Sequence record: SRR9188677_110
Length of the DNA: 33,995 nt
Reading direction: 5' to 3' (one strand)
A program made the position numbers and the translations under genes. Below, in pieces: positions 3-19,923 of this stretch (the stretch's first letter is position 1; every line of letters begins with the position of its first letter). The notes under the pieces are model-generated. The model was not told where the DNA came from. It ran no database searches and was given only the letters and a program-made list of their open reading frames with translations.

Positions 3-389
3 TTTTTTATACTTTTCTTATATGCGGCCTCTAGTAAGCTATTAGATTATGAAAAATCGGAGCTACAAATGTCTAAATCGCCCATTATAACGGACTTTGC
101 CTTTATTTTAGTTTGGCTGGTTCCATTAATAGAAATCATCATTGCTACAATGCTGGTGATCCCAAGAACAACGATGCTTGCCTTGTATGCTTCGTTAGGT
201 CTTATGTCGCTCTTTACAGCATATATTATTGCCATTTTATACTTCACCGATAATATTCCATGCAGCTGCGGTGGCGTTTTAGAGAAAATGAGTTGGGATC
301 AACACTTGATATTCAACATAATTTTTATGGTTCTTGCTGTTACTGCAATTTTAATCCAAACAAAAATACATGAGAAAAAGACGGAGTAA
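3..389 (+). CDS. MauE/DoxX-family redox membrane protein, 5'-truncated by the window edge
   Basis: Frame is open from base 3 (FFILFLYAASSKLLDYEKSELQMSKSP...), so ATG 69 is internal. Shows the LFxYAAxSKLxD motif, several TM helices and the IPCSCGG motif typical of MauE/DoxX. Confidence 0.85.
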   Translation, partial: FFILFLYAASSKLLDYEKSELQMSKSPIITDFAFILVWLVPLIEIIIATMLVIPRTTMLALYASLGLMSLFTAYIIAILYFTDNIPCSCGGVLEKMSWDQHLIFNIIFMVLAVTAILIQTKIHEKKTE

Positions 390-482
390 ATTCCGTTATA
401 AAAATATTCCTATTGGCCAATTTGGATCAGGAGGAACCGAAAACCTGAAATAGAGTAGGTACTTAAATAAAACTATAAAAAC

Positions 483-713
483 ATGAAAAAGTTATTTTTC
501 GTTGCCGTATTAGCTGTAGTTGCCGTTGGTGGTGCATATACAGTAAAAGCTGATACATATTATGGAACAGGTGGAACGCCAGTTTTCAATTGTATTGAAG
601 AAGCTCAATTAGAATGTTCATCAATTTCTGGTGACATTTATACTTCTCCAACAAATCAAACACCAGCAACTAGGGTTGATAAAACTCAACTGGTTACGCA
701 ATACAATCCTTAA
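483..713 (+). CDS. Small secreted peptide, 76 aa (signal peptide plus ~53-aa mature part with C-x7-C); resembles the DUF6520-like peptides found beside MauE/DoxX genes
   Basis: MKK + hydrophobic core + VKA cleavage site; A-rich 5' UTR; two Cys (NCIEEAQLEC); followed by a strong hairpin. The family name is from recall. Confidence 0.8.
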   Translation: MKKLFFVAVLAVVAVGGAYTVKADTYYGTGGTPVFNCIEEAQLECSSISGDIYTSPTNQTPATRVDKTQLVTQYNP

Positions 714-729
714 ATCGGCATTGCAAATT

Positions 730-759
730 AATGAGCTATTCTTTAAAGAATAGCTCATT
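730..759 (+). terminator. Perfect 30-bp palindrome after the peptide gene (terminator or mRNA-stabilising hairpin)
   Basis: aatgagctattcttt (730-744) is the exact reverse complement of aaagaatagctcatt (745-759); only a weak T tail follows. Confidence 0.6.
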
Positions 760-772
760 TAAAATCGACATA

Positions 773-1840
773 ATGAAAAAATTGGCTATCATCTTTGCAG
801 TAATACTAATAACGTCGGCCATTATTATTATACCTCCATTGATAAGTAGATATTCAAATGAAAATGGGTTCGAAAGGCACTTTGCAGATGTTAGAGTTGA
901 CCTTAAAAGTTCACTTAAATTAGATAACAATCTCTATTCTTTAACTGGTATACCAAATAACGATATAAAGCTTAGAAACTTTAACAATCCTTTTTTTGTA
1001 TTCAGCGCAGATTTTGACCTGAAAAAGTTAAATGAAATTGAAATCGAGGTCCCAAAAGCATTTAATGCTAATGTAAAACACACACAAATAAGAACGCAAC
1101 CAACAAATACATATATAAAAAATTCAAGAGGAGATATTCTCTTAATATTTGACAATCAAACAAAATTTTATCAAACAGGACTAGACTTCGACCAAGCACA
1201 TGTTATTTCAAGAAACTCTTTAGTAGTAAGAACAAGGGAAAGTATTAATGGTCAAAACAACAGAGTACTGGAAAAGATCTCACTTTCCGATCAAGGAAAT
1301 ACCACTATTAAGAAATATGCCCTACCAAAACAGGTTGATGGAATATTTTGTACTGATGGATGGCTTCAATATGATTTTAAAAGAGCAAATCTTTATTACT
1401 TGTATGCATATCGGGGAGAATTTCTAATTCTTGATACGAATTTACATGAAATCAAAATCATAAAAACTATAGATACTATTCATAGAGCAAAAATAAATTT
1501 AGGTGTTGAAGATTTAAAGCTAGAAAATGGACGGCATGCTATACAAACAAAACAAGTAAAACCTCCTAATATTGTAAACAGAGGATTTTGTGTAAACAAT
1601 GGTCTAATTTATATACTATCAAACATAAAAGCTGATAATGAAACTGCTAAAAATTTTTACCAAAATCAACCAATTGATGTTTATTCTATAAGCTCAAAAC
1701 AGTACGTCCATAGCTTTTATATCCCTAAATTTAAGGGTTTAAAGCCAAGACAAATTGAAGTAATTGGAAATACTATTGTCGCTATATATGAAAATTATCT
1801 TATAATTTTTATTTTAACGAACACAGTCCAAAATTCATAA
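773..1840 (+). CDS. Membrane-anchored hypothetical protein, probable beta-propeller-like extracytoplasmic domain
   Basis: ATG 773 (MKKLAIIFAVILITSAIIII) is preferred because ATG 731 lies inside the hairpin. N-terminal TM/signal, beta-strand-rich body, motifs NGFERHF, DGIFCTDG, YLYAYRGEF, IDVYS..YVHSFYIP. Confidence 0.75.
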   Translation: MKKLAIIFAVILITSAIIIIPPLISRYSNENGFERHFADVRVDLKSSLKLDNNLYSLTGIPNNDIKLRNFNNPFFVFSADFDLKKLNEIEIEVPKAFNANVKHTQIRTQPTNTYIKNSRGDILLIFDNQTKFYQTGLDFDQAHVISRNSLVVRTRESINGQNNRVLEKISLSDQGNTTIKKYALPKQVDGIFCTDGWLQYDFKRANLYYLYAYRGEFLILDTNLHEIKIIKTIDTIHRAKINLGVEDLKLENGRHAIQTKQVKPPNIVNRGFCVNNGLIYILSNIKADNETAKNFYQNQPIDVYSISSKQYVHSFYIPKFKGLKPRQIEVIGNTIVAIYENYLIIFILTNTVQNS

Positions 1841-1877
1841 TTACCTTTATTTAATAAATTCAAATAAAGGTAATTAT
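1837..1877. terminator. Bidirectional terminator between the converging operons
   Basis: 16-bp perfect inverted repeat ataattacctttattt (1837-1852) / aaataaaggtaattat (1862-1877) between the stops at 1840 (+) and 1891 (-). Confidence 0.7.
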
Positions 1878-1890
1878 TTAAGTGAATGGC

Positions 1891-3414
1891 TTATTTAGCC
1901 TTGGAATTACCAAGAGCATTATTTATCATATCTATTATATCACTGGACTTTTGAGTTAAGCCGACGCTGCTAAGATTAGCAATATTTCGATGTTCTTTAT
2001 CAACCAATAAAATAAAAGGTATAGCATAAATACCGTAGTATTTCAAAAAAGGATGTCTTATGCTTAAATCACCAGTGCTAATATTTATATAATGATTTGA
2101 ACTCATTTTCCCACTTTTTATTCCACTAAGCCATTTATCCTTTTTTGTATCAACACTTATACTTAAGACGACAAAATCTTTATTATCCTTAAATTCGGGA
2201 AAAATTTCTTTTTCGAACTTTTGATGAAATATTGCACATGCGGTACAACCTTCGCCCCAAATATCAATCAAAATAACTTTTCCTTTTAGATTTGCTGTAT
2301 TAAAAGGATTTCCGTTTAGATCTATAAATTCGGCATCAAATAATTTACCACCTTTTTTTAGCTTAATTTTTTCTGAAATTAGATTACTGTACATTGGGTT
2401 GGTAATAAACTTGCTTGCATCCACTACCAATGTGTCATAAGTGTTTTGGTCAAAATTTGAAATATCAATTAGCGACTGTGGGGTTGTAAAAAATTCGGTA
2501 AGTAATCTTTCCCGTATTAATCCAGAATAGCTGCTTTTCACTAAATCATAATACTTTTTTAGATCAATTTTACCATTGGTATCATTTATTTTAATACTTG
2601 ATTTTAAACCCAATACTAGGGTTTGGATATAAATAGGCGATATTACACTAACTTCACTAGGGTCAACAAATAGAGCCTTTTGATAGTTGTTAAAATATGC
2701 TCTTACAATGGCAAGTAGATTTGGAGAACGCTTAAATTCATTAATATATCCTTCCATTATAGTTAGCCAGCTATTATAATACATACCATATTCATTATTT
2801 AATAAAACTCGTATGTCTGGATTAATTGTTTTGTTTTCATTTATCAATCTTTCTTTTTTTTGGGCAAAGCTGATTGAAAGGTCTGTTACATTTTTAAGGA
2901 TATAAGATAAACTTGATGTGTCATTGACCAAATCAAATTTTATGGTTTTTAATTGCTTTCTATACTCTTGATATTGATCTTGCAGTTTCTCAATCATATC
3001 ATATTTTTCAGAACCATTGCCAATAAAATTTATTGCTATAGGTAATCCTCCTAGCCATTCTCTCTTAGGATGATCGATTATTTTTATTGTGACATTATCA
3101 TCAGGTTCCACAAAATATGACCCTATTATGGTTTGACGACCTGCGTTATAAGCAATCATCCGTATATATGAAGTTTTTTTTATTTCAGACAATTTGAAAT
3201 TAAAGTTTCCATTATTATCTATTTTAATAGTTCGACTGGTTTTATTTTTCATAACCGTCTGTGGGTAAGAAACTATTAAAATACTATCCGGAACAGTTTC
3301 TTTTATACATTGAAAAGTGCCTGAAAAAGTTGGACTTTTTGGTTCATTGAATTGACCATTAACTTTTCCGCAATACAATGTTATAGTTAAAAAAATAGCT
3401 ATTAAATTTTTCAT
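1891..3414 (-). CDS. TlpA/ResA-like thiol-disulfide oxidoreductase with a long N-terminal domain, exported
   Basis: Signal peptide; C-terminal thioredoxin-fold motifs LKGKVILIDIWGEGCTAC, VLSISVD, YGIYAIPFILLVDK. Confidence 0.85.
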   Translation of the reverse strand: MKNLIAIFLTITLYCGKVNGQFNEPKSPTFSGTFQCIKETVPDSILIVSYPQTVMKNKTSRTIKIDNNGNFNFKLSEIKKTSYIRMIAYNAGRQTIIGSYFVEPDDNVTIKIIDHPKREWLGGLPIAINFIGNGSEKYDMIEKLQDQYQEYRKQLKTIKFDLVNDTSSLSYILKNVTDLSISFAQKKERLINENKTINPDIRVLLNNEYGMYYNSWLTIMEGYINEFKRSPNLLAIVRAYFNNYQKALFVDPSEVSVISPIYIQTLVLGLKSSIKINDTNGKIDLKKYYDLVKSSYSGLIRERLLTEFFTTPQSLIDISNFDQNTYDTLVVDASKFITNPMYSNLISEKIKLKKGGKLFDAEFIDLNGNPFNTANLKGKVILIDIWGEGCTACAIFHQKFEKEIFPEFKDNKDFVVLSISVDTKKDKWLSGIKSGKMSSNHYINISTGDLSIRHPFLKYYGIYAIPFILLVDKEHRNIANLSSVGLTQKSSDIIDMINNALGNSKAK

Positions 3415-3425
3415 ACTAACATTTA

Positions 3426-4796
3426 TTAATACCCTTCATTTTGGGTAATATTTCTATTTCGATTAATTTCCTCGTCAGGGATTGGATAAAGAACTGATGT
3501 AGATTTCCATGCTGGTTTTATCGTTGATAAAACTACATCTGCGGTTTTTTTTCTTTTGAGATCAAACCAACGGTGGCCCCATTCCGCGAAAAGTTCAATT
3601 CGCCTTTCACTTTGTATTTTTAAAATTAAATCAGCTTGGGAGATATTCGGACTGACGTCTTTTATTAGTGGGAGACCAGCCCTGTTTCTGATTTCATCCA
3701 AATCGCTTATGGCGGTACTTAATTTATTTAAATGTGCCCTAGCTTCAGATCGTATTAAATATAGCTCTGCTAACCTAAGTATCATTGAATACTCGGTAAT
3801 GGTAGTGGATTGTTTAACTTTATATTTAAAGGGATAATAATATATGCCTGTATTATCTGTAAACGTTTTTATCCAAGAATTTTTTCTCTTATCGTTAGCT
3901 TCAAAGGCATTTTCTACAAAATCTTTATTTAATGATACAATTTGTGGGGTGGATGTTAATATGAACATTCCTCCCTCAAAAGTATTATAGTTGTTGGATG
4001 GTGGCATTAATTGCCAAATAGTTTCAGAACTATTTTTGAGAAATACAGCGTCTAAAGAGGCTAAGCTGTATGAATTTGTTTTTGATATAACTAGGTAAGC
4101 ATATTTTTCGGCATTTTCCCAATCATTTAAATAAAGGTACACTCTTGATAGTAATGACTGTACAACAGATTTATTAGGCCTAATCCTTTCCGTAGTTATA
4201 TAAGCATCACCTAAAAGCTTCTCCGAAGCAATCAAATCATTAATTATTTGTTGGTAAATAATTTCGATTGACGAACGAATAGCATTTTGATTAACTTTAT
4301 AATCAGTACTAAGATTTAAAGGAACTCTTCCAAATAGATTGACTAAATAGAAATAGTTGAAAGCCCTAATAAAAAGTGCCTCACCTTCTAATTGGCCTTT
4401 TACTGAGGGTGTTACATTTACTGATTTTGATAATCCTTCAATAACTGCATTTGCGGCGTAAATCATGTTATATGGCGTTCCATATAAAGTTGTTATTGCA
4501 CTATTGGATGAAGTAAGATTATTTTCATAGAATTGAGAATATGCGCTATTAAAGTTTATTAGCTCATCAGCCGAAAGCCCGCAAAGAGCGGTTATACTTG
4601 AGGAGTTTCCAGAGGCATAACTATTGTTTGCCATACTACTATATATTCCTATTAAAGCGGAAGTGGCGATCTCATTGCTATCAAATACCGTGGCCTGCAC
4701 CAAACTATCTTTAGGCACACCAATATCAAGGAACTTTTTACACGATATATTGATGCAGTTTAGACAAAATAAAAGAATTAATATTTTCTGTTTCAT
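3426..4796 (-). CDS. RagB/SusD-family outer-membrane lipoprotein
   Basis: Lipobox ISC-KKFL; motifs GEALFIRAFNYFYLVNLFGRVP, LRLAELYLIRSEA, ERRIELFAEWGHRWFDLKR, YPIP, QNEGY. Confidence 0.95.
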   Translation of the reverse strand: MKQKILILLFCLNCINISCKKFLDIGVPKDSLVQATVFDSNEIATSALIGIYSSMANNSYASGNSSSITALCGLSADELINFNSAYSQFYENNLTSSNSAITTLYGTPYNMIYAANAVIEGLSKSVNVTPSVKGQLEGEALFIRAFNYFYLVNLFGRVPLNLSTDYKVNQNAIRSSIEIIYQQIINDLIASEKLLGDAYITTERIRPNKSVVQSLLSRVYLYLNDWENAEKYAYLVISKTNSYSLASLDAVFLKNSSETIWQLMPPSNNYNTFEGGMFILTSTPQIVSLNKDFVENAFEANDKRKNSWIKTFTDNTGIYYYPFKYKVKQSTTITEYSMILRLAELYLIRSEARAHLNKLSTAISDLDEIRNRAGLPLIKDVSPNISQADLILKIQSERRIELFAEWGHRWFDLKRKKTADVVLSTIKPAWKSTSVLYPIPDEEINRNRNITQNEGY

Positions 4797-4807
4797 AGCT
4801 ATTCTAA

Positions 4808-7800
4808 TTAAAATTTGAGATTTAACCCCATCATAATGGTTCTTAAAGGCGGTAACACCAATCCTTGACTTTCTGGATCTAAACCAACATAATTTGTTAG
4901 TGTAAAAAGATTTTGTGCTTGTAGATATATCTGTGCATCATTTATTTTTAGTCCTTTCACCAGTTTCTCGGGTAATCTATAAGAAAGTGATACGTTTTTT
5001 AACCTTACATAAGACGCATCCACAATTGACAATCCACCATCACCCATAGCATTTAGATATTGAGTTCTTGCATTTGTGGAAGTGCTAAATTTTTGCGTTG
5101 ATGACTGATCCCCTATATTTTGCCATCTATTGAGTACCTCAATAGGTTGATTTGGAGCAGCTGTAGATGAGCTCCAAAATCCTGGGCTTCCAGTATAAGC
5201 CAAATAGTTTCTACCATTTTGTTTATTAAATGATATTAAGAAGTCTAAAGAAAATTGATCAAGGTTTAAAGAATTTTGTAAACCTCCATAAAAATATTGC
5301 CCAGTAAATTTATGCAAATAGCGGTCATAGCTATTTAAAACGCCGTTGCCATCATAATCTTCCCTAGTATAAAGACCTGTTTGGCTATCGACAGAAACAT
5401 TATAAGTTTTTAGGATTGATAATGGCTGACCAACAATATAGCTATCTGCATATACGGAAGTACTTAAATCTGGATAGGCGATAAGTTTGTTTTTGGGTAT
5501 TGTCAAATTAACCGTAGTTTCCCACTTAAACCCATCTTTATTTAACAATTTGTATCCCAATAAAAATTCTAGCCCACTATTCCTAACCTTTGCTGGCAAG
5601 TTAGCTTGTATAGTTGTGAAACCTGTACTAAGAGGTAGTGGCAAACCCACTAACTGGTTTGATGAAGTATTTCTATAAAACGATATTTCTAGATTAAGCC
5701 TATTCTGAAAGAGAGCTAATTGCAGACCTAGTTCAGATTTTTTATTTACCTCCCAAGCATAATAAGGATTTGAAATCCTTGTAGGATAAATTGTTGCTTG
5801 CCCTTGATATGTACCCGCATAGTTATTTGACCATAATTCTAAATAGCCATAATCTGGTATTTGGTCATTACCAGTTATACCATAACTAGCCCTAAGTTTA
5901 CCAAAATTTAAAAAGAGAAGATGTTCTTTGAAGAAATTTTCATTTGAAAAAATCCATGCAGTACCCAAAGCTCCAAAATTTGCAAATTGCTTTCCATTTC
6001 CAAATCTACTAGAGCCGTCCCTTCGAGCCGTTAGGTTGATAAAATATTTGTCGTTTAAACTGTAGTTAACTCTTGAATATAAAGAGTTATACCTATAGAG
6101 AATATTGCTAATTTGACTTTTTTCGAGTAATGAAGCAGAAGCAAGGTTTCCCAAAAGTTCATCACTATTATAACCTGAAGCCTTAGTCGTTTGTAATTGG
6201 AGAACATTTTCCTGAAAACTCATTCCAATTAAGGCTTGCAGTTTCCCTTTTCCTATTTGAAAATTATAGTCAAGTTGGGGTTCTACCAACCATGTATTGT
6301 TATAGTTATTGGTAAAATAAGACGCTCTACTTGTAGAAGTTAGATTAAGTGCAGGTGAAAAAGTTGATAAAGGTGTGCTTGCAAATTCTTCTCTTCTAAT
6401 TGTATTATACCCTAGTGATGTTTTCAAAACTAGGTTTTTTATTATTTTGTAATTTAAGCTTACATTTCCGATTAAATTGTTTGTCTTAGCATCATTAGGT
6501 TGATAGAAATAAGACATTGGATTTATATAATTGGTTCTATTTAGCCAAGTCAGATTACCATATTCATCAAATGGATTAGGTGTATTTGGTGATAAAAATA
6601 TAAGACTTGTTGGGTCCGTTCTTATTAACTGACTATCTGTATTGCTATAATTTACATTAAAATTTGCCTGAAATCTATCTTCTTTTGAACCTATATTAAG
6701 ATTTGAGTGTAGACTAATTCTTTTAAATCCAAAATCTCCAGGGAATACGGTTCCTTCTTTATAATAATTAGCACCAAGAATATATCTGCTTTGTTCTCCA
6801 CCTCCGCTAATATTTAATGAGACATTTGTGTTGTTTGCTGTACCTCCAATTAATTCTTCTTGCCAATCTGTATATCTATCTGAACCCCATGCACCATTTA
6901 TATCATATTGGTTTGCTCCAGGAGTTAAGCCATCATTTTTGAACGCTTCGGTGCGCATTTGAAGATATTGCTCTGTGTCCAATAAATCTAATCTGTGAGA
7001 TACCTTACTAATCCCTTGCGAAGCATTCACACTAATTTTCATAGCTCCGGAAGCTCCTTTTTTGGTTGTTATTAATACCACTCCGTTAGCTCCCCTAGTG
7101 CCATAAATTGATGTGGCATCGGCATCCTTTAATACTTCAATACTTTCTATATCATAAGGGTTTATTGAACTTAACGGACTTGCCCCAACGGTAAGTAAAG
7201 ATGAAGTTCCTGAAGATATACTTGTAGATGGATATACGACCCCATCGATTACATATAAAGGCTCATTTCCAACCTGCAAATTGTTAATACTGCTACGACC
7301 ACGTATTTGAACCTTAAACCCTCCACCTGGCACTCCTGTTAATTGTGTTATTTCCATTCCTGTAACACGTCCTTGCAAGGCCATTAATGGATTATTAATA
7401 GATTGTTTTTCAATAGTTTCAGAAGTAATCTTGGAAATTGAGCCAGTTCTTTCACGGTCATTTACTTTATAATAACCTGCATTTACTTCTACGCCTTTAA
7501 GCGTATTGGTTTCTTGTATTAAAGTAACATTTAAGAATTTTTCACTATCAACAGTTCTTTCAACTGCCGTATATCCTAGATAATTAAACTGTAATATGAC
7601 AGTACCATTTGATACCCCTATGGAAAACTCGCCATAACTGTTTGTTTGTGTTGTTTTATTGGTGTTTTTTAATCTTACTGTAACACCAGACATTGGTGAT
7701 CCTTGCTCGTCAATTACTTTTCCTTTGACTGTAAAGTCCAAAGCTTTGTTGTTTTCTTGAATATTACTAGGCTTAGCCTTGCGCTTTATAACAATTGTTT

Positions 7801-8164
7801 TGTCAAAGATTTCGTAGGTAAAAGGCGAACCTTTTAAGCACTCCTCTAAAACCTGCTGAATGCTCGCATTTTTATTTGACACTGAAATTTTACTGGCTTT
7901 GTCGAGTTCCTCTATATCGTACCAAAAGCTCAATCCAGTTTGTTTCTTGATTTCATTAAAAGCAGTTTGTAGCGAAACATCTTTTAATGAAAGATTTACC
8001 GTTTGCGCATTGGCCGTTGCAGTAACCTTGAAACAGGTTATCAACAACAGCATCATTGCAATATTAAAGGTCTTGGGGAGTTTGAGCTTTACAATCGGCT
8101 TACATCCAGCCATTAGGAGCCACTTCCACCTAAAAAGGGGAGAGTGATGTTTAAAAAAAATCAT
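4808..8164 (-). CDS. SusC/RagA TonB-dependent transporter with N-terminal STN signalling domain (transducer)
   Basis: STN-like region (SLQTAFNEIKKQTGLSFWY), CarboxypepD-like domain, plug motif DIESIEVLKDADATSIYGTRGANGVVLITTKKG, RRDGSSRFG, C-terminal Phe. Confidence 0.95.
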   Translation of the reverse strand: MIFFKHHSPLFRWKWLLMAGCKPIVKLKLPKTFNIAMMLLLITCFKVTATANAQTVNLSLKDVSLQTAFNEIKKQTGLSFWYDIEELDKASKISVSNKNASIQQVLEECLKGSPFTYEIFDKTIVIKRKAKPSNIQENNKALDFTVKGKVIDEQGSPMSGVTVRLKNTNKTTQTNSYGEFSIGVSNGTVILQFNYLGYTAVERTVDSEKFLNVTLIQETNTLKGVEVNAGYYKVNDRERTGSISKITSETIEKQSINNPLMALQGRVTGMEITQLTGVPGGGFKVQIRGRSSINNLQVGNEPLYVIDGVVYPSTSISSGTSSLLTVGASPLSSINPYDIESIEVLKDADATSIYGTRGANGVVLITTKKGASGAMKISVNASQGISKVSHRLDLLDTEQYLQMRTEAFKNDGLTPGANQYDINGAWGSDRYTDWQEELIGGTANNTNVSLNISGGGEQSRYILGANYYKEGTVFPGDFGFKRISLHSNLNIGSKEDRFQANFNVNYSNTDSQLIRTDPTSLIFLSPNTPNPFDEYGNLTWLNRTNYINPMSYFYQPNDAKTNNLIGNVSLNYKIIKNLVLKTSLGYNTIRREEFASTPLSTFSPALNLTSTSRASYFTNNYNNTWLVEPQLDYNFQIGKGKLQALIGMSFQENVLQLQTTKASGYNSDELLGNLASASLLEKSQISNILYRYNSLYSRVNYSLNDKYFINLTARRDGSSRFGNGKQFANFGALGTAWIFSNENFFKEHLLFLNFGKLRASYGITGNDQIPDYGYLELWSNNYAGTYQGQATIYPTRISNPYYAWEVNKKSELGLQLALFQNRLNLEISFYRNTSSNQLVGLPLPLSTGFTTIQANLPAKVRNSGLEFLLGYKLLNKDGFKWETTVNLTIPKNKLIAYPDLSTSVYADSYIVGQPLSILKTYNVSVDSQTGLYTREDYDGNGVLNSYDRYLHKFTGQYFYGGLQNSLNLDQFSLDFLISFNKQNGRNYLAYTGSPGFWSSSTAAPNQPIEVLNRWQNIGDQSSTQKFSTSTNARTQYLNAMGDGGLSIVDASYVRLKNVSLSYRLPEKLVKGLKINDAQIYLQAQNLFTLTNYVGLDPESQGLVLPPLRTIMMGLNLKF

Positions 8165-8246
8165 ACTTTTGTAAGGTTTGGGTTAGTTGAACAAATTATC
8201 TTCACGGATACTGCTTTTTGCAGTTTGGTTAATTCCCCAAATTATA

Positions 8247-8271
8247 CCGGATGTGTTCGAAGCGCATCCGG
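8247..8271. promoter_or_regulatory. GC-rich hairpin in the fecR-susC intergenic region
   Basis: ccggatgtg (8247-8255) / cgcatccgg (8263-8271). The T-run follows on the + strand, so it is not a standard terminator for the minus-strand operon; possibly a processing or stability hairpin. Confidence 0.45.
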
Positions 8272-8331
8272 CTTTTTTTATGGGGATTATTAACTAATAC
8301 TAATTTTTGTTTATCTCATTGGCACTTCATT

Positions 8332-9435
8332 TTAAGGTGTAACAATCAGTTTGTAGGTCGAATTTTCTTGTCTTTCGATGGTGAAGTGGATACCACTATA
8401 TGCTAAAATCTTTAAAAGAACAGATAGGTTCGAGCTTCTTGATATTCCTCCGTTAAATGTTTTATTTGATATAACACCCCTGTATTCAACTTCTATATTG
8501 TACCATCGGGAAGCCTGTTTTAATATGGATTTTATATCCGCATTTTTAAATTCCAATCTTCCATTTTTCCAAGCCAAAGCAGTTTCTATATCAGCTTCTT
8601 GTACTTTGATCGCCTTATCATTGGTTATGGATTGTTGATTTGGTTTTAGAATTATTTTCTTTGACGATAGATTAGTTATTCTTACAGACCCTTCCAATAA
8701 GGTAGTAACAGTGCCGCCGTCATCCTTATAATCATTTATATTGAAATGTGTTCCTAATACCTCCGTGGTTTGTAAAGAACTTTTAACAACAAAAGGCTTA
8801 GACTTATTAGGAGAAACCTCGAAATATGCCTCCCCATTGAGTTCTACGCCTCGTTGTTTTGCACTCTCGAAAGAAATGGGGTATTTTAATGAAGATGAGG
8901 CATTCAACCAAACTTTTGTACTGTCCTGCAATATAATCTGATACTGACCGCCCTTGGGAGTAGAAAAGGTTTGAATGCCCGATCGCTGTTCTACAGTACT
9001 AATAGCTGTGCCGTCTGAATAGGTTAATTCCTTAGAACTAACAATTACGGCTGTTTTGGAACCGTTTAAATTGATCGTTTTACCATTGTCCAGCGTGATA
9101 CTTGCTTGGTTGCGACCTGGTGAAATATCCGAAATAATTTGTTGTTTGGGTTCTATATTGATCTTGTCAAAAATTCCCCAAGTACATACAGTAAGCAGGG
9201 TAACGGCAGCAACTGCGCCAATTCCTTTCCAAAGATTTATTTTAAGTGCTTGCTTTCTGGATATAGGTAATTCCTTATAGATTTGTTTACCTATCTCTGC
9301 AATCATTCCATCAGAAATATCAATTTCATGTTCATTAAAATCTAAAAATGAACTTTCTACAAGAGACTTTTCCGCCTCGGTGCACTCACCTGCATTATAC
9401 CTAATGAGCAGTTGTTTAGCTTCTTCCGTATTCAT
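8332..9435 (-). CDS. FecR-family anti-sigma factor
   Basis: Single TM segment, then TPKGGQYQIILQDSTKVWLNASSSLKYP, GEAYFEV, VLGTHFNI, TTLLEGSV, AWKNG, RWYNIEVEY. Confidence 0.93.
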   Translation of the reverse strand: MNTEEAKQLLIRYNAGECTEAEKSLVESSFLDFNEHEIDISDGMIAEIGKQIYKELPISRKQALKINLWKGIGAVAAVTLLTVCTWGIFDKINIEPKQQIISDISPGRNQASITLDNGKTINLNGSKTAVIVSSKELTYSDGTAISTVEQRSGIQTFSTPKGGQYQIILQDSTKVWLNASSSLKYPISFESAKQRGVELNGEAYFEVSPNKSKPFVVKSSLQTTEVLGTHFNINDYKDDGGTVTTLLEGSVRITNLSSKKIILKPNQQSITNDKAIKVQEADIETALAWKNGRLEFKNADIKSILKQASRWYNIEVEYRGVISNKTFNGGISRSSNLSVLLKILAYSGIHFTIERQENSTYKLIVTP

Positions 9436-9515
9436 TATACTGATGGGTTGATTGGAAGCTAGTACAGCAAAGGGTATGAAATCTTGAAGATTTAATTATT
9501 TTTTATTCAGCATTG

Positions 9516-10079
9516 CTAAAATAGGAGCAGAATATTCAGCTTAGCCTTTAGTATTTTTACAGCATTACTGATCTGATGGGAGACATTGCTTTCAGTCGTA
9601 TCGAGTTTACTCGCAATTTCTTTGTTTGTAAAATATTCCTTTCGACTTAGCATAAAAATCTCCTTCATTTTTTTTGGAAGATTTTGGATTTGCATTTCAA
9701 TGTATTCAGCTAGCTGTCTTTCCCTTATCTTGTTATCGGCATAATCAGTTTTGGGCTCAGATGCTAGCCTTTTAAGGACTTCTATATATTTTGCTTCAAC
9801 CTTTTCATGGGCGAAAAAATTAAGCATACTCGTTTTAAGTGATATATATAAAAATTGAGATAGATTGCCGTTCTCTAAAATAGTTTCCCTCTTAAACCAG
9901 AGTTTGGTAAACAAATCTTGCACAAAATCCTTTGCCAAATCTTTATCCCTTAACTTTTTAAATGAAAAGGAAAACATCAAATAATAATACCGTTCGTAAA
10001 TCTGGGTATAGGCCAAATGATCCCCATCTCTTAAAAGAGTTACTAATTGACTATCGGTAAAGGTTTGATAACCAGACAT
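9516..10079 (-). CDS. ECF RNA polymerase sigma-70 factor
   Basis: Region 2 (AYTQIYERYY...AKDFVQDLFTKLW) and region 4 (LPKKMKEIFMLSRKEYFTNKEIA); directly upstream of fecR. Confidence 0.93.
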   Translation of the reverse strand: MSGYQTFTDSQLVTLLRDGDHLAYTQIYERYYYLMFSFSFKKLRDKDLAKDFVQDLFTKLWFKRETILENGNLSQFLYISLKTSMLNFFAHEKVEAKYIEVLKRLASEPKTDYADNKIRERQLAEYIEMQIQNLPKKMKEIFMLSRKEYFTNKEIASKLDTTESNVSHQISNAVKILKAKLNILLLF

Positions 10080-10120
10080 CGCCCATTATTATACTATAAT
10101 GAGTTATTAATCGACGGAGC

Positions 10121-10391: not shown

Positions 10392-10524
10392 CACTAATAT
10401 AAGTAATAAAGTATAAAAATACTAATAAATATTTTCATTTTGTACTTATTAACACTCATTTTGTTCTTATTTTAATTTGTATAATACTATAAAGCTCATT
10501 TTTAAAAATAAAATTTTTTTAAAA

Positions 10525-10875
10525 ATGGCTGATTGGAAAGAAACCAGTACTGAAAAATTAGATCCTGCATTTGCAGCTATCAGGTCTCTTTTCCTAGATG
10601 GGACAATTGACAAAATGTACAAACTGATAAATCATAACCCTACAAAAGTTGCCCAACTTTTTAGCATGAGTTATAAAACCTTTCACGAAAAGTTAAGGGA
10701 ACCTTGGAGATTTTCAGTTTTACACATCATGCTACTAGCAAATGTATTAAAAATCGATCCAGAAGTAATCAATGGTGTAATACAAAAAGAAGTTGGTACG
10801 GAGTTAAATAAAAAGCTTGAAGCATACAATGCTAAAATTAAGGCTTCAAAGCAAAAAAGCGTAAAGAAACCTTAA
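10525..10875 (+). CDS. Putative Xre/Cro-like helix-turn-helix protein
   Basis: ATG 10525 follows an A-rich leader and is preferred to TTG 10477. PTKVAQLFSMSYKTFHEKLREPWRFSVLHIMLLANVLKID resembles an Xre-type HTH. Confidence 0.6.
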   Translation: MADWKETSTEKLDPAFAAIRSLFLDGTIDKMYKLINHNPTKVAQLFSMSYKTFHEKLREPWRFSVLHIMLLANVLKIDPEVINGVIQKEVGTELNKKLEAYNAKIKASKQKSVKKP

Positions 10876-11310
10876 GATTATTGAACTTATAGGAAATGCT
10901 AAATTGACACCTTAAATTTCACTTTATTATTTTCGTATATTTGTATTTAGTCATCATTTTAGGTATTCATTTCAAATAAAGACCCCAACGTATTTTAGCA
11001 TTGGGGTTTTTGGGGCTGGCAATATTTTTACCCCTATATATGTATTATTCCATATTATCCTGACAATATTCTCCTTCAAAAGGTCAGGCGTATTTTACAT
11101 CCTAAACAATTTAGTTCGGCAGCCAAAATTTATTACCTTTGGAAAGAGAGCGTTAATGTGCGGGGGTGAAACCAGCCTTGGTAAACCTCCGCCTTTTTAA
11201 AGTGCTCTAGTGCGTCTTATCGTAATAAAAATGCGGCTATTTAAACTAAACACTTATTGGTATATCTAATTTTATCTAACCTCTCCACCTAGTGGATCAA
11301 ATATCTGCTT

Positions 11311-11505
11311 ATGTCAAACTCAATCGATCTATCTAAATTAAAAATAATTCCCATATCCAATGTTATTAAAGGCCAAGTTCTGATAAATCTAGGTGAGGTT
11401 ATAGAAATTGATAGCTATCCAACCCATATTAATCTAATAATCTCCCGGTTAAATGAAAAACAGGTAGTTAAGTTTGGGAAAGAAGTATCCTTAGTAATTG
11501 TATAA
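11311..11505 (+). CDS. Small hypothetical protein, 64 aa, beta-rich
   Basis: ATG-start ORF in an otherwise empty region, protein-like amphipathic strand pattern, upstream TACCTTTG box at 11134-11141. Confidence 0.5.
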   Translation: MSNSIDLSKLKIIPISNVIKGQVLINLGEVIEIDSYPTHINLIISRLNEKQVVKFGKEVSLVIV

Positions 11506-11560
11506 ATGAGGGGAAGTTAAGGGGGCTGTCATATTCTGTATGCCTCCCTTTAATAATTAT

Positions 11561-11791
11561 ATGATTATGGACGAATTTTATTACCATGGGCTATATCTAT
11601 CGCAGGATATACCACAAAACACGCATCTTACGATTGTCGATGTTGCAATAGTTTTTTTCTTAGGAGTATTTTTGGTGTCCTCCTTAACCTTTGTTTTAAA
11701 TCAATGGTTAAAAGAACAGATAAAAGAAATGGAAGAAGATTTTCGTTTGCTTGAATGCCGGTTGCTAAATCGGAACATAGCCATCGATTGA
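11561..11791 (+). CDS. Small single-TM hypothetical protein
   Basis: Hydrophobic segment IVDVAIVFFLGVFLVSSLTFVL followed by a charged helix; start uncertain (11540, 11561 or 11567). Confidence 0.45.
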   Translation: MIMDEFYYHGLYLSQDIPQNTHLTIVDVAIVFFLGVFLVSSLTFVLNQWLKEQIKEMEEDFRLLECRLLNRNIAID

Positions 11792-11909
11792 TTAAATTGC
11801 ATCCTAAAATTTAAATTGAATATAAAATTTAGGATACGGATTAATTCGATAGGGTCAATATCTCAACATCTGGCAGGACATCTAATTTGGGACTTAAAAT
11901 TCACTTAAA

Positions 11910-12569
11910 ATGATAGAAAAATACAAATCAGAAATCCTACAAGTTTATGAGCAAAAAAGGGATGCAGGTGTGCTTTCACCAAATTTAATTCATTTAACAC
12001 CAGCAAATATTCGTAAAGAGGTTTGTTTGCTATTAAGTGCAGGCTGTGATAACACTGATATTAGAATGTTAAAGGAGTTTTTAGATTTACCATTTGAAAA
12101 ACAGCTTTCGGATGTCCCATTTAGAAAGTGGGATACTGACAAATTTAGGCCACTTTGCACTTTTCTAAAGAAAAGAATTAATACCCGTGATAAAAATATT
12201 GAACTTCTTGCCTGGTTGATTGACTTTCATCCACGCCCTTTTTCAAACTTCTGGCGCTTATTCAAAGGAAAATCCGGTTCTCTTTCTGAATTATCAATAA
12301 CAGAAAGCGGAATTTTGGAAGCCAACAATGAAAGGCAGCTAAATCTTTATAAACAGAATATGTTTCTGAATAACGAAACTCCTCAAAAGTCAGGTTCAAA
12401 TTCCCTATTAGCAAATGAACCTTTAGAAAAGGAAGTATTAATATCTCTAGGTGTACCTATAAATGAGAAAATCAGGAGCAAAGAAATTACCTTAGAATAC
12501 CCATCTGGTGTTAAATTATCGGTAGATGCTTCCGATCTATCATTGATCGCCGAACTGATAAAATTGTAA
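11910..12569 (+). CDS. Hypothetical protein with KNIELLAWLIDFxPRP domain and an IS66-TnpA-like C-terminal tail
   Basis: 219-aa ORF with helical N-domain, low-complexity linker and tail EITLEYPSGVKLSVDASDLSLIAELIKL. Confidence 0.7.
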   Translation: MIEKYKSEILQVYEQKRDAGVLSPNLIHLTPANIRKEVCLLLSAGCDNTDIRMLKEFLDLPFEKQLSDVPFRKWDTDKFRPLCTFLKKRINTRDKNIELLAWLIDFHPRPFSNFWRLFKGKSGSLSELSITESGILEANNERQLNLYKQNMFLNNETPQKSGSNSLLANEPLEKEVLISLGVPINEKIRSKEITLEYPSGVKLSVDASDLSLIAELIKL

Positions 12570-12796: not shown

Positions 12797-14098
12797 TTAG
12801 GCGGCGTTTCTCACCGATGTACTTCTCTTTTGCGTTTTAAGCATCTTGGTGTCTAACCGTCTTAATAGGCTTACAACCTTAATTTGTACTTCGTCAACTA
12901 TGCACCAATCTTTTTCAATATAAATATCAGTCGTAGAATGTTCGCTATCAACGTGATTTAATGCCTGTGCTACATCGTCTTTGCTCATTCTACAAGAGTT
13001 TCGGGCAATGGTGGCAAAACTATGTCTAGCCCAATAAAGGGTAAACTCTTTGAACCCTGTTATTTTCCTTAAATCTTTCATGCCCATAGCCAAAGCTTTG
13101 TTCAATCCATTAGAATTGATGTAACGGATAGAAAGTTTTTCTATGTACTTTTCTAATAATGGTCTAGCTTCATCAATAATTTTGATACTAATAAAAGCAT
13201 CATCTTTTCTTTGACCTTCCGTTTTTGAACGGTTATAATCTATTCTACCATTCCTGATATTCCCTTTTGTCAGATTATAAAAATCAACCGCATTCATTCC
13301 ACATAAATAGAAAGAAAGCATATACAGCTCCTTTGCCATTTCTGCCCGACTACCTTTTTTAGTCACGCAGTCTCGTATGGTTCTAATTTGTTCCAAAGTG
13401 TTATTTCTCTTTTTAGTTAGAGGTGCAGAACCTATTTTATATTTCTTAAAAGGATAATGCTTGATCCGATAAATGCCAAGGTCTTCATTATTATACATAT
13501 TTCGGGCAGCATTAAACAGAGTTCGCAAATCACGCATGTGGTTGAAAAGCCCACTATCTGACAACCCTTTACTTGTTGTTTCTTTTACAAGATTTTTCTG
13601 CCCACTTGGGCGTATCATTGTACGTTCGCTTCTCAAATAGCGCTCATAGGAGAGTAGCATATTTGAATTGATTTCTGTTATGGACACAGCATCCCTTTTA
13701 AAATAGTCAATAAGGCTATTACGCACAACACGATGGTTATGTGCCGTACCTTTTTTTCCATCTTTATCGCTCTGTAAAATATGTACAGAGCAAAATTTAA
13801 TAAAATCTACATCGGCATCTTTGTCGCGTAGGTAATCTTTAAGACTTTCGGCATTAAAAAAGTTCAGTTTCTCACCGAGTTCACTGATTACCTTACGATA
13901 GCCTTTTAATTGTTCATCGATCAGGTCATTGATAAAATTGTCCTTGATCTTCATTTTAGTAGTCAGTTGTTTTTTGACTACATAGTGTACAGTATCAATG
14001 TACTTTCTTTGGTTGTTGTGATGGACACAGATTTTTACATTGTAAGTTCCATCTACTTTCTTGTGGTGTTCGAACACCTTGGCGCTAACGGTTGCCAT
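12797..14098 (-). CDS. Site-specific tyrosine integrase (arm-binding, SAM-like and catalytic domains)
   Basis: N-terminal KKVDGTYNVKICVHHNNQRKYIDT; core-binding region; catalytic boxes LSFYLCGMNAVD, RSKT, YWARHSFATIA, ALNH, TTDIYI. Confidence 0.9.
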   Translation of the reverse strand: MATVSAKVFEHHKKVDGTYNVKICVHHNNQRKYIDTVHYVVKKQLTTKMKIKDNFINDLIDEQLKGYRKVISELGEKLNFFNAESLKDYLRDKDADVDFIKFCSVHILQSDKDGKKGTAHNHRVVRNSLIDYFKRDAVSITEINSNMLLSYERYLRSERTMIRPSGQKNLVKETTSKGLSDSGLFNHMRDLRTLFNAARNMYNNEDLGIYRIKHYPFKKYKIGSAPLTKKRNNTLEQIRTIRDCVTKKGSRAEMAKELYMLSFYLCGMNAVDFYNLTKGNIRNGRIDYNRSKTEGQRKDDAFISIKIIDEARPLLEKYIEKLSIRYINSNGLNKALAMGMKDLRKITGFKEFTLYWARHSFATIARNSCRMSKDDVAQALNHVDSEHSTTDIYIEKDWCIVDEVQIKVVSLLRRLDTKMLKTQKRSTSVRNAA

Positions 14099-14275: not shown

Positions 14276-14280
14276 CATAG

Positions 14281-14354
14281 TGGGCCCAGCTGGGCTCGAA
14301 CCAGCGACCAAGAGATTATGAGTCTCCTACTCTAACCAACTGAGCTATAGGCCC
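14281..14354 (-). tRNA. tRNA with CAT anticodon, most likely tRNA-Ile2 (lysidine); CCA not encoded
   Basis: Reverse complement gggcctatagctcagttggttagagtaggagactCATaatctcttggtcgctggttcgagcccagctgggccca folds as a cloverleaf. G1-C72 is paired (not initiator); C4-G69 and C5-G68 are the TilS determinants. Confidence 0.93.
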
Positions 14355-14495
14355 TTACGCAATTTTTTGCTACCTGCGTGAGGCAAATTTAAACAAATTT
14401 TTCAAGTCGGCAACATCTTTTTTTGGTCTTCGAAACTTTCGAGTTCCTCAAAAGAAAGCAAACTTAAAAAGCTAATTTTCAATTCTTTAGCCCGT

Positions 14496-14537
14496 AGATT
14501 ATGAGTCTTCTACTCTAACCAACTGAGCTATAGGCCC
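14496..14537 (-). pseudogene. Truncated 5'-half copy of the same tRNA
   Basis: 41/42 nt identical to 14313-14354; ends in the anticodon stem; no T arm or 3' acceptor strand. Confidence 0.85.
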
Positions 14538-14604
14538 CGAAAAACCTATTAGGTTTTGCGAGTGCAATGTTACATATTTGCAACGAATTTTGGAAACACT
14601 TTTT

Positions 14605-18474: not shown

Positions 18475-19923
18475 ATGAGCGGCATTAATCTTATTCCAAC
18501 AGAAAAAATAAAAGAACGTTTACGATATGAAAACCCTTGGTGGGTTAACAAACAAATACCGGAAATATATGGTACGATGGCCAAGCGACTATATTTTAAC
18601 TTGTTTTATCCGTTCGTAATTGAAAAAACTGTAAAAAGAGCATTGGTTCTTATGGGGCCAAGACGCGTTGGAAAAACTGTAATGCTATTTCACAGCATAC
18701 AACAATTATTAACTGAAAATGTAAATCCGCAAAAAATATTTTTCATTGGCATAGACAACCCTATTTATGTGCACTTAAGTTTAGAAGACATTTTAAGTTT
18801 GTGTAAGCAATCACTCAATCAAGACAATCTAAAAGGATGCTATGTTTTTTTTGACGAAATACAATACCTAAAAGATTGGGAACGCCACCTTAAAGTGTTA
18901 GTCGACTCCTTTCCTGAAACGAAATTTATTGTATCGGGTTCAGCAGCAGCAGCATTAAAATGGCATAGCACAGAAAGTGGCGCTGGTAGATTTACAGATT
19001 TCATGTTGCCTCCTCTTACCTTCCAGGAGTATATTCATTTAAAAGAAATGAACCATTTAGTATACGATGGAAAAATAAGCTACGGAGAAAATCAAATACC
19101 ATACTGTCTTCCACACGATATAAAAGTCTTAAATAAAGAGTTTGTACATTACTTAAACTTTGGTGGTTACCCCGAAGTTGTTTTAAGTGAAAAGATACAA
19201 AGTGATATGGGACGATACGTAAAAAACGACATTGTAGATAAAGTATTACTTAGAGATTTACCAAGTTTATATGGCATAAAAGACGTACAAGAGTTAAACC
19301 GATTTTTTACTTACATAGCTTATCATACTGGTAATGAATTTTCTTATGAAACAATGAGTAAAGAAAGCGGAATACAAAAAGATACTTTAAAAAAATACCT
19401 AGAGTATTTAGAGGCTGCATTTTTAATCAAAGTACTAAACAAAGTTGATGTAACCGCAAAACGATTAAAACGAGTAACCAGCTTCAAAGTGTATCTAACA
19501 AATCCATCATTGCGTACAGCATTATTTTCACCTATTAGTGAAACCGACAGTGAAATGGGGAATATGGTAGAAACAGCTGTTTTATCGCAATGGATGCATA
19601 GAGAAAAATTGGATTTAACCTATGCCCGATGGAAAGAAGGAAGAAATGAAGGTGAAGTTGATTTGGTGTTGGTTGATGATAAAAAATATAAACCTCAATG
19701 GGGGGTTGAGATCAAATGGAGTAATAGATATTTTGAAAAACCAAAAGAATTAAAAAGTTTAATACATTTTTGTAAGAGCAACAATTTTAAAAATGCTTTG
19801 GTCACATCGATAGATCAACTTGGAATAAAGCAAATAGAAGGTTTATTATTTTCATTTTTACCAGCTTCAATATATAGTTACAATATTGGCGACATCACAT
19901 TGAAAATGAAGAATCAAAATTAG
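18475..19923 (+). CDS. AAA_14 ATPase with DUF4143 / PD-(D/E)xK-like C-terminus
   Basis: ENPWW, Walker A GPRRVGKT, Walker B FFDEIQ, SGS, GGYPE, EVDLV...GVEIKW. Confidence 0.9.
   Translation: MSGINLIPTEKIKERLRYENPWWVNKQIPEIYGTMAKRLYFNLFYPFVIEKTVKRALVLMGPRRVGKTVMLFHSIQQLLTENVNPQKIFFIGIDNPIYVHLSLEDILSLCKQSLNQDNLKGCYVFFDEIQYLKDWERHLKVLVDSFPETKFIVSGSAAAALKWHSTESGAGRFTDFMLPPLTFQEYIHLKEMNHLVYDGKISYGENQIPYCLPHDIKVLNKEFVHYLNFGGYPEVVLSEKIQSDMGRYVKNDIVDKVLLRDLPSLYGIKDVQELNRFFTYIAYHTGNEFSYETMSKESGIQKDTLKKYLEYLEAAFLIKVLNKVDVTAKRLKRVTSFKVYLTNPSLRTALFSPISETDSEMGNMVETAVLSQWMHREKLDLTYARWKEGRNEGEVDLVLVDDKKYKPQWGVEIKWSNRYFEKPKELKSLIHFCKSNNFKNALVTSIDQLGIKQIEGLLFSFLPASIYSYNIGDITLKMKNQN

Follow-up and report, generated by a model that had tools for sequence, protein, structure and literature searches.

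The window analysed here, a stretch of 33,995 nucleotides from sequence record SRR9188677_110, raises the question of what a SusC/SusD (SusCD) pair imports or senses when it belongs to a complete signalling operon, has no carbohydrate-active enzyme (CAZyme) in view and faces an operon encoding a small exported protein with two Cys residues. The window comes from a Pedobacter-like genome of soil-type Bacteroidota, whose closest named relatives are P. helvus (locus L001) and P. nutrimenti (locus L002), and contains the right end of an integrative element. A preliminary description, made from the sequence alone, had proposed a peptide production and sensing module instead of a polysaccharide utilisation locus. 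The eight genes that it named are all present where it placed them, as open reading frames (ORFs) and family-profile matches, including the secreted two-Cys peptide, with its Sec-type signal and mature part of about 53 aa, and the CAZyme-free sigma/FecR/STN-SusC/SusD chain. Peptide and transporter are exchanged together as highly variable alleles, which speaks more for a private molecular signal or tag than for sugar uptake. The probability that the SusCD-FecR-sigma chain has the mini-protein as its cognate ligand, serving to signal identity or density, is put at roughly 0.4. The module comprises the following features.

3..389, plus strand: predicted MauE-family membrane disulfide oxidase with a CSC motif (PF07291, 109.5 bits against a cut-off of 27, E 1.9e-31)
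412..421, plus strand: perfect 10-nt palindrome upstream of the pseudoknot, with a core that varies and stays self-complementary across relatives
428..461, plus strand: H-type pseudoknot of the DUF805b type (Rfam RF02914, 30.4 bits, E 3e-5, below the cut-off of 35.6)
483..713, plus strand: exported mini-protein of 76 aa with a Sec-type signal and C-x7-C motif (Cys37 and Cys45)
773..1840 (ORF 731-1840), plus strand: membrane-anchored beta-propeller (AlphaFold2 (AF2) pLDDT 91; no named Pfam family)
1891..3414, minus strand: TlpA/ResA-like thioredoxin, C390-x-x-C393, final gene of the SusCD operon (PF13905, E 1e-12)
3426..4796, minus strand: SusD/RagB lipoprotein of a distinct clade (PF14322, PF07980)
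4808..8164, minus strand: SusC/RagA transporter with an STN signalling domain (TIGR04056, PF07660)
8332..9435, minus strand: FecR-type anti-sigma factor (PF04773, PF16344)
9516..10079, minus strand: extracytoplasmic function (ECF) sigma factor (TIGR02937 above cut-off; TIGR02985 at 118.7 bits, slightly below 126.4)

Linkage of the peptide operon with SusCD

A propeller profile built from 55 sequences matched 27 of 251 genomes of the family, 63 of 235 of the genus and 30 of 401 of the phylum, with up to eight full-length copies in one genome. The loci analysed were the best 80 of 175 metagenome matches, 33 further regions, 60 of the best-scoring genome matches and L001-L004, of which L004 is frameshift-ridden; L005, which carries a distant MauE (28%), was excluded from every count. 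Merging at 90% identity reduced 173 propeller ORFs to 155, and 96 of these had at least 8 kb on both sides. A small ORF with a signal and Cys residues was present in 95 of the 96 loci, MauE in 92, SusC and SusD in 90, thioredoxin in 84 and S9 peptidase in 22, with peptide, MauE, SusC, SusD and thioredoxin found jointly in 81. The small-ORF filter is heuristic and admits a few false ORFs; since signal-plus-two-Cys ORFs occur away from the propeller at a background of about 0.02 per 2 kb, the co-location of peptide and propeller is far above chance. This neighbourhood survey bears out the earlier expectation that the peptide/MauE operon and the SusCD operon co-occur across Bacteroidota, the linkage being seen across families and in both convergent and co-directional layouts. 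Full-length loci from the phylum set carried the peptide in 18 of 18 cases, with MauE and propeller fused in most, and MauE DNA used as the anchor recovered the peptide in 22 of 23 strong loci and a propeller within 1.5 kb in 22 of 23.

Anchoring on MauE genes in five genomes distinguishes the core of the module from its accessory parts. PF07291 matches number 7-14 per genome, including one long form each (385-407 aa), and 27 of the 40 short MauEs lie beside a listed propeller by hand count. The other 13 form 12 loci, 10 of which adjoin a Cys mini-protein; nine face a converging SusCD, all nine without a propeller and eight of them with a detected peptide, while two of the 12 have a shorter propeller with SusCD not in view. 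MauE and the mini-protein are therefore the core, and SusCD is retained despite loss of the propeller. In eight propeller-less loci (L323, L325, L327, L328, L331-L334), MauE and two-Cys proteins of 85-133 aa, four of them in tandem in L331, converge on SusCD; these loci mostly have a more distant SusD group and lack the pseudoknot by the pattern used.

The suggestion that CAZymes left of the window might explain the SusCD pair can be set aside: locus L006, which is 99.99% identical to the window and extends the DNA 9.3 kb leftward, allowed assignment of ORFs to families from 9.3 kb left of base 1 through the tRNA described below, and no CAZyme was found over that span, where four ORFs are without a family.

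Variant arrangements also occur. In G299 (L179, L182, L184, L188, L192) five near-identical MauE-peptide-propeller units are dispersed, some without adjacent SusCD, which suggests recent spread of the producer half. Distant propeller relatives in L284, L286 and L288 lie beside arrays of other small two-Cys exported proteins, with the pseudoknot in two. In L218 (12019-17703), SusCD-TlpA lies opposite a two-Cys protein; next come a two-component pair and what we take to be a lantibiotic-dehydratase-like gene.

Exchange of an allele block

Comparison with L001 divides the module into conserved flanks and a diverged interior. Protein identity is 82% for MauE, 68% for the peptide signal, 80% for the first 200 residues of SusC, 81% for FecR and 94% for sigma; it is 25% for the mature peptide, 32% for the propeller, 32% for TlpA, 52% for SusD and 49% for the SusC barrel. 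DNA similarity to L001 covers bases 1-535 and 6719-10092, with weak pieces only between them, so that the block borders, where this similarity stops, fall where the signal sequence ends and close to the SusC plug. Identity at four-fold degenerate sites is 0.59-0.79 for the flanks and drops to 0.23-0.40 within the block, saturation being reached at 0.29. Because silent sites are near saturation inside and conserved in the flanks, the mature peptide, propeller, TlpA, SusD and SusC barrel have, judging from this pattern, been replaced by an old allele, beyond mere fast drift. The cassette proteins are moreover the unusually diverse ones, since upstream regulators with equally saturated silent sites retain 65-84% protein identity.

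MauE, mini-protein and propeller

MauE is 5'-truncated in the window and has a full length of 155 aa in L006; the CxCGG motif is present in 123 of 135 module MauEs. The window mini-protein has a conserved signal followed by a hypervariable mature part of 53 aa (5.8 kDa, net charge -4, no Trp). Its two Cys are the only invariant residues of the mature part, with no conserved His or Tyr. Among 166 mature parts, 102 have four Cys, 53 have two (nearly all C-x6-7-C) and seven have six; Cys number goes with thioredoxin type, two Cys being found in 27 of 35 modules of the window's type. The DUF6520 profile (PF20130) does not match the window peptide and matches four of 15 aligned relatives (best E 1e-5), and Atlas feature scores of 0.89-0.90 relate the peptide to clusters with 18-39% DUF6520. 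Four paralogous peptide genes are arrayed in one module in L009 (144-1479), L199 and L300; of those in L199, at least three carry a pseudoknot of their own. The mini-protein is likely to be a client of MauE, because nearly all short MauEs of the five genomes adjoin a Cys mini-protein.

The propeller probably starts at 773, where P0001, a 91% homolog, begins, giving a product of 355 aa whose model consists of one N-terminal helix (residues 11-42) and the beta-propeller. The best-scoring structure is 3s9j, a DUF4221 protein from Bacteroides (Z 18.2, rmsd 4.1, 294 residues aligned), and Atlas leads are TolB-like, DUF5128 and DUF4221 propellers (scores 0.86-0.88). No Pfam family was matched by more than one of 55 members, and Foldseek returned generic propellers only. 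MauE is fused to the propeller in eight of 64 propeller homologs. A complex prediction for propeller (44-365) and mature peptide (24-76), run with no alignments, scored 0.02 and is evidence neither way.

RNA leader of the peptide gene

A conserved RNA element at 412-461, missed by the preliminary description, precedes the peptide gene. Its pseudoknot pairs 428-431 with 444-447 (stem 1) and 436-438 with 458-460 (stem 2) and ends 22 nt before the peptide start. RF02914 gave ten matches in 15 related loci, eight of them above the cut-off. A pseudoknot descriptor matched before 90 of 164 peptide genes, against two of 739 other module genes and one of 492 shuffles, mostly 19-31 nt ahead of the ATG. 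Across 49 aligned copies, which were selected by the descriptor, 94.5% of cells pair and six of seven pairs vary on both sides; when stem 2 plays no part in the selection, Watson-Crick pairing of this stem holds in 67 of 81 cases against a shuffle mean of 27. Covariation thus demonstrates the leader structure. A recoding role was ruled out, as MauE ends 38 nt before the pseudoknot.

Among 30 DUF805b loci examined genome-wide, 10 precede module peptides and four precede GG-leader precursor-like peptides with weak family matches only, and most of the others precede proteins whose N-termini look signal-like by eye. The GG-leader cases (L247, L249, L251, L258) encode peptides of 57-78 aa, with an HlyD-type gene after L258; the sharing of this pseudoknot with such precursors argues that the module peptide is the product. 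The orphan DUF805b RNA thereby becomes tied to exported peptide genes.

The palindrome is present in 57 of 75 leaders; control windows have it in 16 of 75 cases and shuffles in 13 on average. With its centre fixed from the outer stem and nothing else, self-complementarity of the four innermost bases holds for 39 of 50 leaders and one of 25 controls, with seven different cores, and in a separate phylum set the core test gave nine of 17 against three of 17 controls. The median gain from self-duplex formation is -15.3 kcal/mol versus -4.0 kcal/mol. Counts for both palindrome and pseudoknot overstate independence, because the relatives share ancestry. The simplest reading is that the palindrome would mediate pairing between two RNA molecules, as a hairpin cannot pair its own centre and the half-sites and spacing vary; a spacer-less operator is the alternative. 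That the core switches among no fewer than seven self-complementary words is puzzling on its own and suggests RNA-RNA pairing between transcripts.

Receptor operon and the place of TlpA

The layout of ECF/FecR cell-surface signalling, with ECF sigma factor, FecR and STN transporter within one operon, is present in the window. Pedobacter genomes hold 90-157 SusD-like genes each. The five genomes gave 635 SusD matches, whose scores drop from 230 to 155 bits at the gap that delimits the SusD clade of the window; 53 members lie above it. A listed propeller is found no more than 10 kb away from 20 of these, 17 of which rank among the best 23 (a hand count against a list that may be incomplete).

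Among 20 sampled loci of the clade distant from any listed propeller, a thioredoxin-fold gene directly follows SusD in at least 12, an S9 peptidase is present in at least three and an ABC-type cluster in at least four. Within the modules, SusD is followed by thioredoxin in 59 of 90 and by S9 peptidase in 14 of 90. TlpA is therefore part of the receptor operon, since a thioredoxin-fold gene follows SusD also at loci without the peptide, and its earlier casting as a maturation enzyme of the peptide loses ground. Its N-terminal beta and helical domains are variable, the CxxC is present in all 37 proteins of its type, and the modelled fold matches Bacteroides TlpA domains and ResA in a fold search. 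As these are reductants, a role on imported cargo is more likely than one in maturation. In L216, L226, L228 and L230, the same SusD clade heads clusters that, by eye, presumably contain ABC-type transporter, MutS-like and peptidase-like genes instead of TlpA.

Function of the mini-protein

In the preferred mechanism, the mini-protein would be made from a structured mRNA leader, which may raise or stabilise its expression, and exported by Sec. The cassette MauE would close the C-x7-C loop in the periplasm, a client assignment suggested by gene linkage, and the propeller, often fused to MauE, may be an allele-specific helper holding or presenting that client. Either the entire looped protein or a processed fragment would leave the cell and bind the facing SusC/SusD, and the STN domain of SusC would signal through FecR to the ECF sigma factor, in keeping with the observed architecture; TlpA, encoded with the receptor, may open the disulfide after import. 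Exchange of peptide, propeller, TlpA, SusD and SusC barrel as one allele block between conserved flanks would give each element its own specificity, and related SusCD-TlpA units without a peptide may act as 'listener' receptors that respond to other alleles. Most likely, carriers of the element would use the module to signal identity or density to one another. This reading is preferred because a self-made product, a co-swapped facing transducer and many orphan receptors together form the pattern of siderophore and haemophore systems.

Several results weigh against the ligand reading. No outer-membrane exit route for the mini-protein is encoded in the module. SusD is not within 10 kb in six of the 96 propeller modules, and FecR and sigma are within that distance in just 44 and 40, respectively, the search span partly cutting both off. 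Viewed from the SusD side the link to the peptide is one-way: 33 of the 53 clade members in the five genomes have no listed propeller nearby by hand count, and a peptide was found in few (at least two) of the 20 propeller-distant loci. The proposed autoinduction is weakened, as no ECF promoter motif shared upstream of susC and of mauE or the peptide was found, in a weak test in which shared 7-mers numbered 3.6 within loci and 3.5 between loci for susC and mauE (3.1 and 2.3 for the peptide leader; sd 1.9; n=35). The element is also mosaic elsewhere, with upstream regulators near saturation against L001 (0.26-0.46 identical at four-fold sites) and three upstream genes 97-100% identical to L002.

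Partial Mantel tests on 76 complete modules in three subtypes (31 in the window's, 14 and 31 in the others) count partly against it as well, and are to be read as trends only because pairs are non-independent and linked genes co-inherit. Co-variation of peptide with SusC/SusD, which the preliminary description had listed as a check for the SusD pocket, holds in the window's subtype, where mature-peptide similarity tracks the SusC barrel with propeller and MauE controlled (partial r 0.24), but is lost after control in the other two (r 0.06 and 0.03), where the peptide-propeller link stays (0.64 and 0.23). The propeller is tracked in all subtypes (partial r 0.22-0.64), best or equally well, and MauE hardly.

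These correlations favour the best-placed alternative, which is nevertheless unlikely, namely that the mini-protein stays within the envelope as a small subunit or cofactor of the propeller, or as an assembly factor of SusCD, while SusCD, aided by TlpA or the S9 peptidase, takes up peptides from outside that serve as food or cues. MauA, the small partner of the propeller MauB, provides a model for such a role. The existence of MauE-propeller fusions, the two peptide-propeller pairs ahead of one SusCD in L181, the fact that Sec export ends in the periplasm and the frequent absence of the peptide beside the SusD clade all fit this explanation, whereas the nine propeller-less MauE loci facing SusCD, eight with a peptide, and the 19 of 140 modules with two or more peptide genes beside the propeller do not, and a structural subunit leaves the co-swapping of receptor alleles unexplained.

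A narrow-range antibacterial mini-protein, resembling BfUbb or a microcin, could instead enter competitors through related SusCD, with immunity conferred by the propeller or TlpA; there is a precedent in BfUbb, which, in the accessible part of the source, enters through ButCD (PMC11467351). Such a toxin would suit a hypervariable mature part that follows a conserved signal and has a co-varying neighbour, its carriage on an integrative and conjugative element (ICE) and the GG-leader precursors preceded by the same pseudoknot. It is made improbable by a producer that encodes its own matching, inducible importer, by the neutral or acidic nature of most mature peptides (net charge not above 0 in 77% of the 166), by the absence of a GG leader and C39 exporter from the module and by the lack of any conserved core apart from Cys, so that the earlier bacteriocin-like option recedes.

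Still less probable is a secreted scavenger of the haemophore or methanobactin kind, which would bind a metal or cofactor outside the cell and be recaptured by its own transducer, with orphan SusCDs importing the carriers of others. The combination of an STN-FecR-sigma receptor with a secreted ribosomal product does reproduce the HasA/HasR and MbnA/MbnT layout, the peptides are acidic, orphan receptors are many and a related ICE bears metal-resistance cargo, but two Cys alone are invariant, MauE would oxidise them, and no conserved His, Tyr or modifying enzyme is present. That an oxidative-folding cassette and a peptide-uptake cassette merely co-travel on mobile DNA, as each half found alone and the mosaic element might suggest, is very improbable given their linkage in 90 of 96 loci, across families and layouts, and given that propeller-less loci show the linkage with another, distant SusD group.

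Beyond the ligand reading itself, a wider proposal is rather unlikely, namely that Bacteroidota and their conjugative elements share, across the phylum, an allele-specific means of communication or kin tagging. In it, the ribosomal disulfide mini-protein would be the self-made SusCD-FecR-sigma ligand, orphan SusCD-TlpA units would eavesdrop, and output would be set by the mRNA leader, where the self-complementary palindrome would join two transcripts beside the DUF805b pseudoknot; if true, it would mean that SusCD is used for self-recognition, that MauE has a natural client and that the orphan RNA motif has a first role. To our knowledge, neither peptide signalling nor kin recognition has been described from free-living Bacteroidota. 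Many Pedobacter SusD-like genes lie without CAZymes, and the module names a testable ligand for the whole SusD clade as well as a dedicated candidate client for the newly shown MauE pathway. The 53-aa peptide is synthesizable, and natural matched and mismatched alleles serve as controls.

Mobile element and surrounding features

The remaining features belong to the intergenic regions and to the integration site of the element.

1837..1877, no strand assigned: AU-rich hairpin where the operons converge, a candidate terminator for both (-16.7 and -17.7 kcal/mol; equalled by 0 of 200 shuffles)
8247..8271, minus strand: hairpin between fecR and susC (folding; the same hairpin is present in L001 and L002)
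12797..14098, minus strand: tyrosine integrase of the module-carrying element (PF13102, PF17293)
14280..14354, minus strand: tRNA with CAT anticodon, integration site (tRNA prediction; repeated 83 kb away in G001)

The hairpin at 1837-1877 (z -5.5 and -7.4) is a plausible bidirectional terminator of the kind proposed earlier; the strong AU-rich fold is there, but the terminator scan did not list it. The sigma-70 promoter scan was at chance level (64 vs 66.7).

The earlier assignment to an integrative element is upheld. An integrase at a tRNA, one hallmark of Bacteroidota ICEs, is present in the window, and att repeats and tra/mob genes are known from the relative G001, whose integrase-tRNA stretch shares 93% DNA identity and whose tRNA is repeated at a distance of 83 kb, with TraG, K, M and N above their cut-offs and MobB/MobC-like genes below theirs in between. 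Because G001 shares the integrase-tRNA stretch and has the repeated tRNA with tra and mob-like genes between, the module is carried by a predicted ICE family; in the nearest relative the element is this 83-kb tRNA-flanked ICE. A partial second tRNA copy (5' half) lies at 14493-14540, 140 bases past the tRNA, and the same 42-base extra match is found in G001 and G002. L231-L232, in the G001 ICE, contain genes judged by eye to be arsenic-, copper- and heavy-metal-resistance-like.

The left extension in L006 holds a Crp-like gene, a membrane LuxR, a GNAT, a membrane LytTR, unknown ORFs and excisionase- and primase-like genes, with families assigned through L001 orthologues. Within it, positions 5221-9080 of L006 (left of base 1), encoding a 130-aa unknown protein, the membrane LytTR, GNAT, membrane LuxR and Crp-like proteins, form a block conserved beside the module in many loci, and its membrane-bound regulators could be a second peptide sensor. 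Between sigma and integrase (10477-12569) lie four unknown ORFs (116-132, 64, 83 and 219 aa) with no Pfam or NCBIfam match. An AAA_14/DUF4143 ATPase at 18475-19923 is probably a small insertion; its surroundings are low in GC (0.31-0.33) and are flanked by katG-like and proline-dehydrogenase-like genes.

Comparison with known systems

MauE homologues substitute for DsbB in E. coli through their CxC motif, with activity shown for two MauEs, and the family is described as a generalist oxidase in the accessible text (10.64898/2026.03.05.709764), in agreement with the role in disulfide formation assumed in the preliminary description; that text makes no mention of the present module. The mau cluster resembles the module in combining PF07291 and its CxC with a nearby CxxC thioredoxin and a small exported Cys protein as probable client (10.64898/2026.03.05.709764, same text). 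It differs in that the module MauE is an extra copy with the motif CxCGG, not CxCFG, and in that the mau small subunit has six disulfides and a tryptophan tryptophylquinone Trp, in contrast to two Cys and no Trp in the window mature peptide; no MauG is present among the ORFs of L006. In Streptomyces, candidate mauE clusters for ribosomally synthesised and post-translationally modified peptides have been proposed to use MauE to modify a Cys-rich small precursor (PMC7794033), but these precursors have at least eight Cys, the host is Gram-positive and the part of the source seen names no SusCD or propeller.

Among SusCD systems, RagAB can import oligopeptides (10.1101/755678) and ButCD imports the disulfide-bearing small protein BfUbb (PMC11467351), as far as the accessible parts of both sources show. 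These pairs share with the module the absence of CAZymes, peptidase neighbours in some subtypes and a small disulfide protein as possible cargo; unlike them, the module encodes its presumed ligand facing the transporter, swaps the two together and includes an STN-FecR-sigma chain. SusC matches RagA at E 1e-57, more weakly than another SusC at 5e-89, and SusD matches are partial, the closest solved SusD aligning at E 1.5e-24 over half its length.

Polysaccharide utilisation loci have the SusC/SusD pair in common with the window locus, where CAZymes were not found. GG-bacteriocin and microcin clusters have a GG leader, a C39 ABC exporter and usually a cationic core, as opposed to the Sec-type signal, charge of -4 and lack of an exporter seen here. 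By the features tested, the module is neither a polysaccharide utilisation locus, nor a mau cluster, nor a GG-bacteriocin cluster. No description of the module was found in a literature search with subscription papers mostly outside it, nor anything on DUF6520 in the same search.

The DUF805b RNA has reportedly been published as a cis-regulatory candidate, and Rfam RF02914 has the same consensus and position as the window leader. Its structure line contains stem 1 only; stem 2 and the palindrome were found here, though the pseudoknot may already be drawn in the source supplement.

Surface signalling by a self-made ligand is represented by HasA/HasR/HasI/HasS, methanobactin MbnA/MbnT and pyoverdine/FpvA. 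These systems and the module have in common a secreted product, a TonB-dependent transducer, an anti-sigma factor with ECF sigma, a polymorphic locus and many orphan receptors; the module differs in its Sec-exported disulfide mini-protein, its SusC/SusD receptor and the lack of evident metal-binding chemistry. It would represent a form of cell-surface signalling or peptide import in which the ligand is self-encoded, and a new kind of system if the signal role is true.

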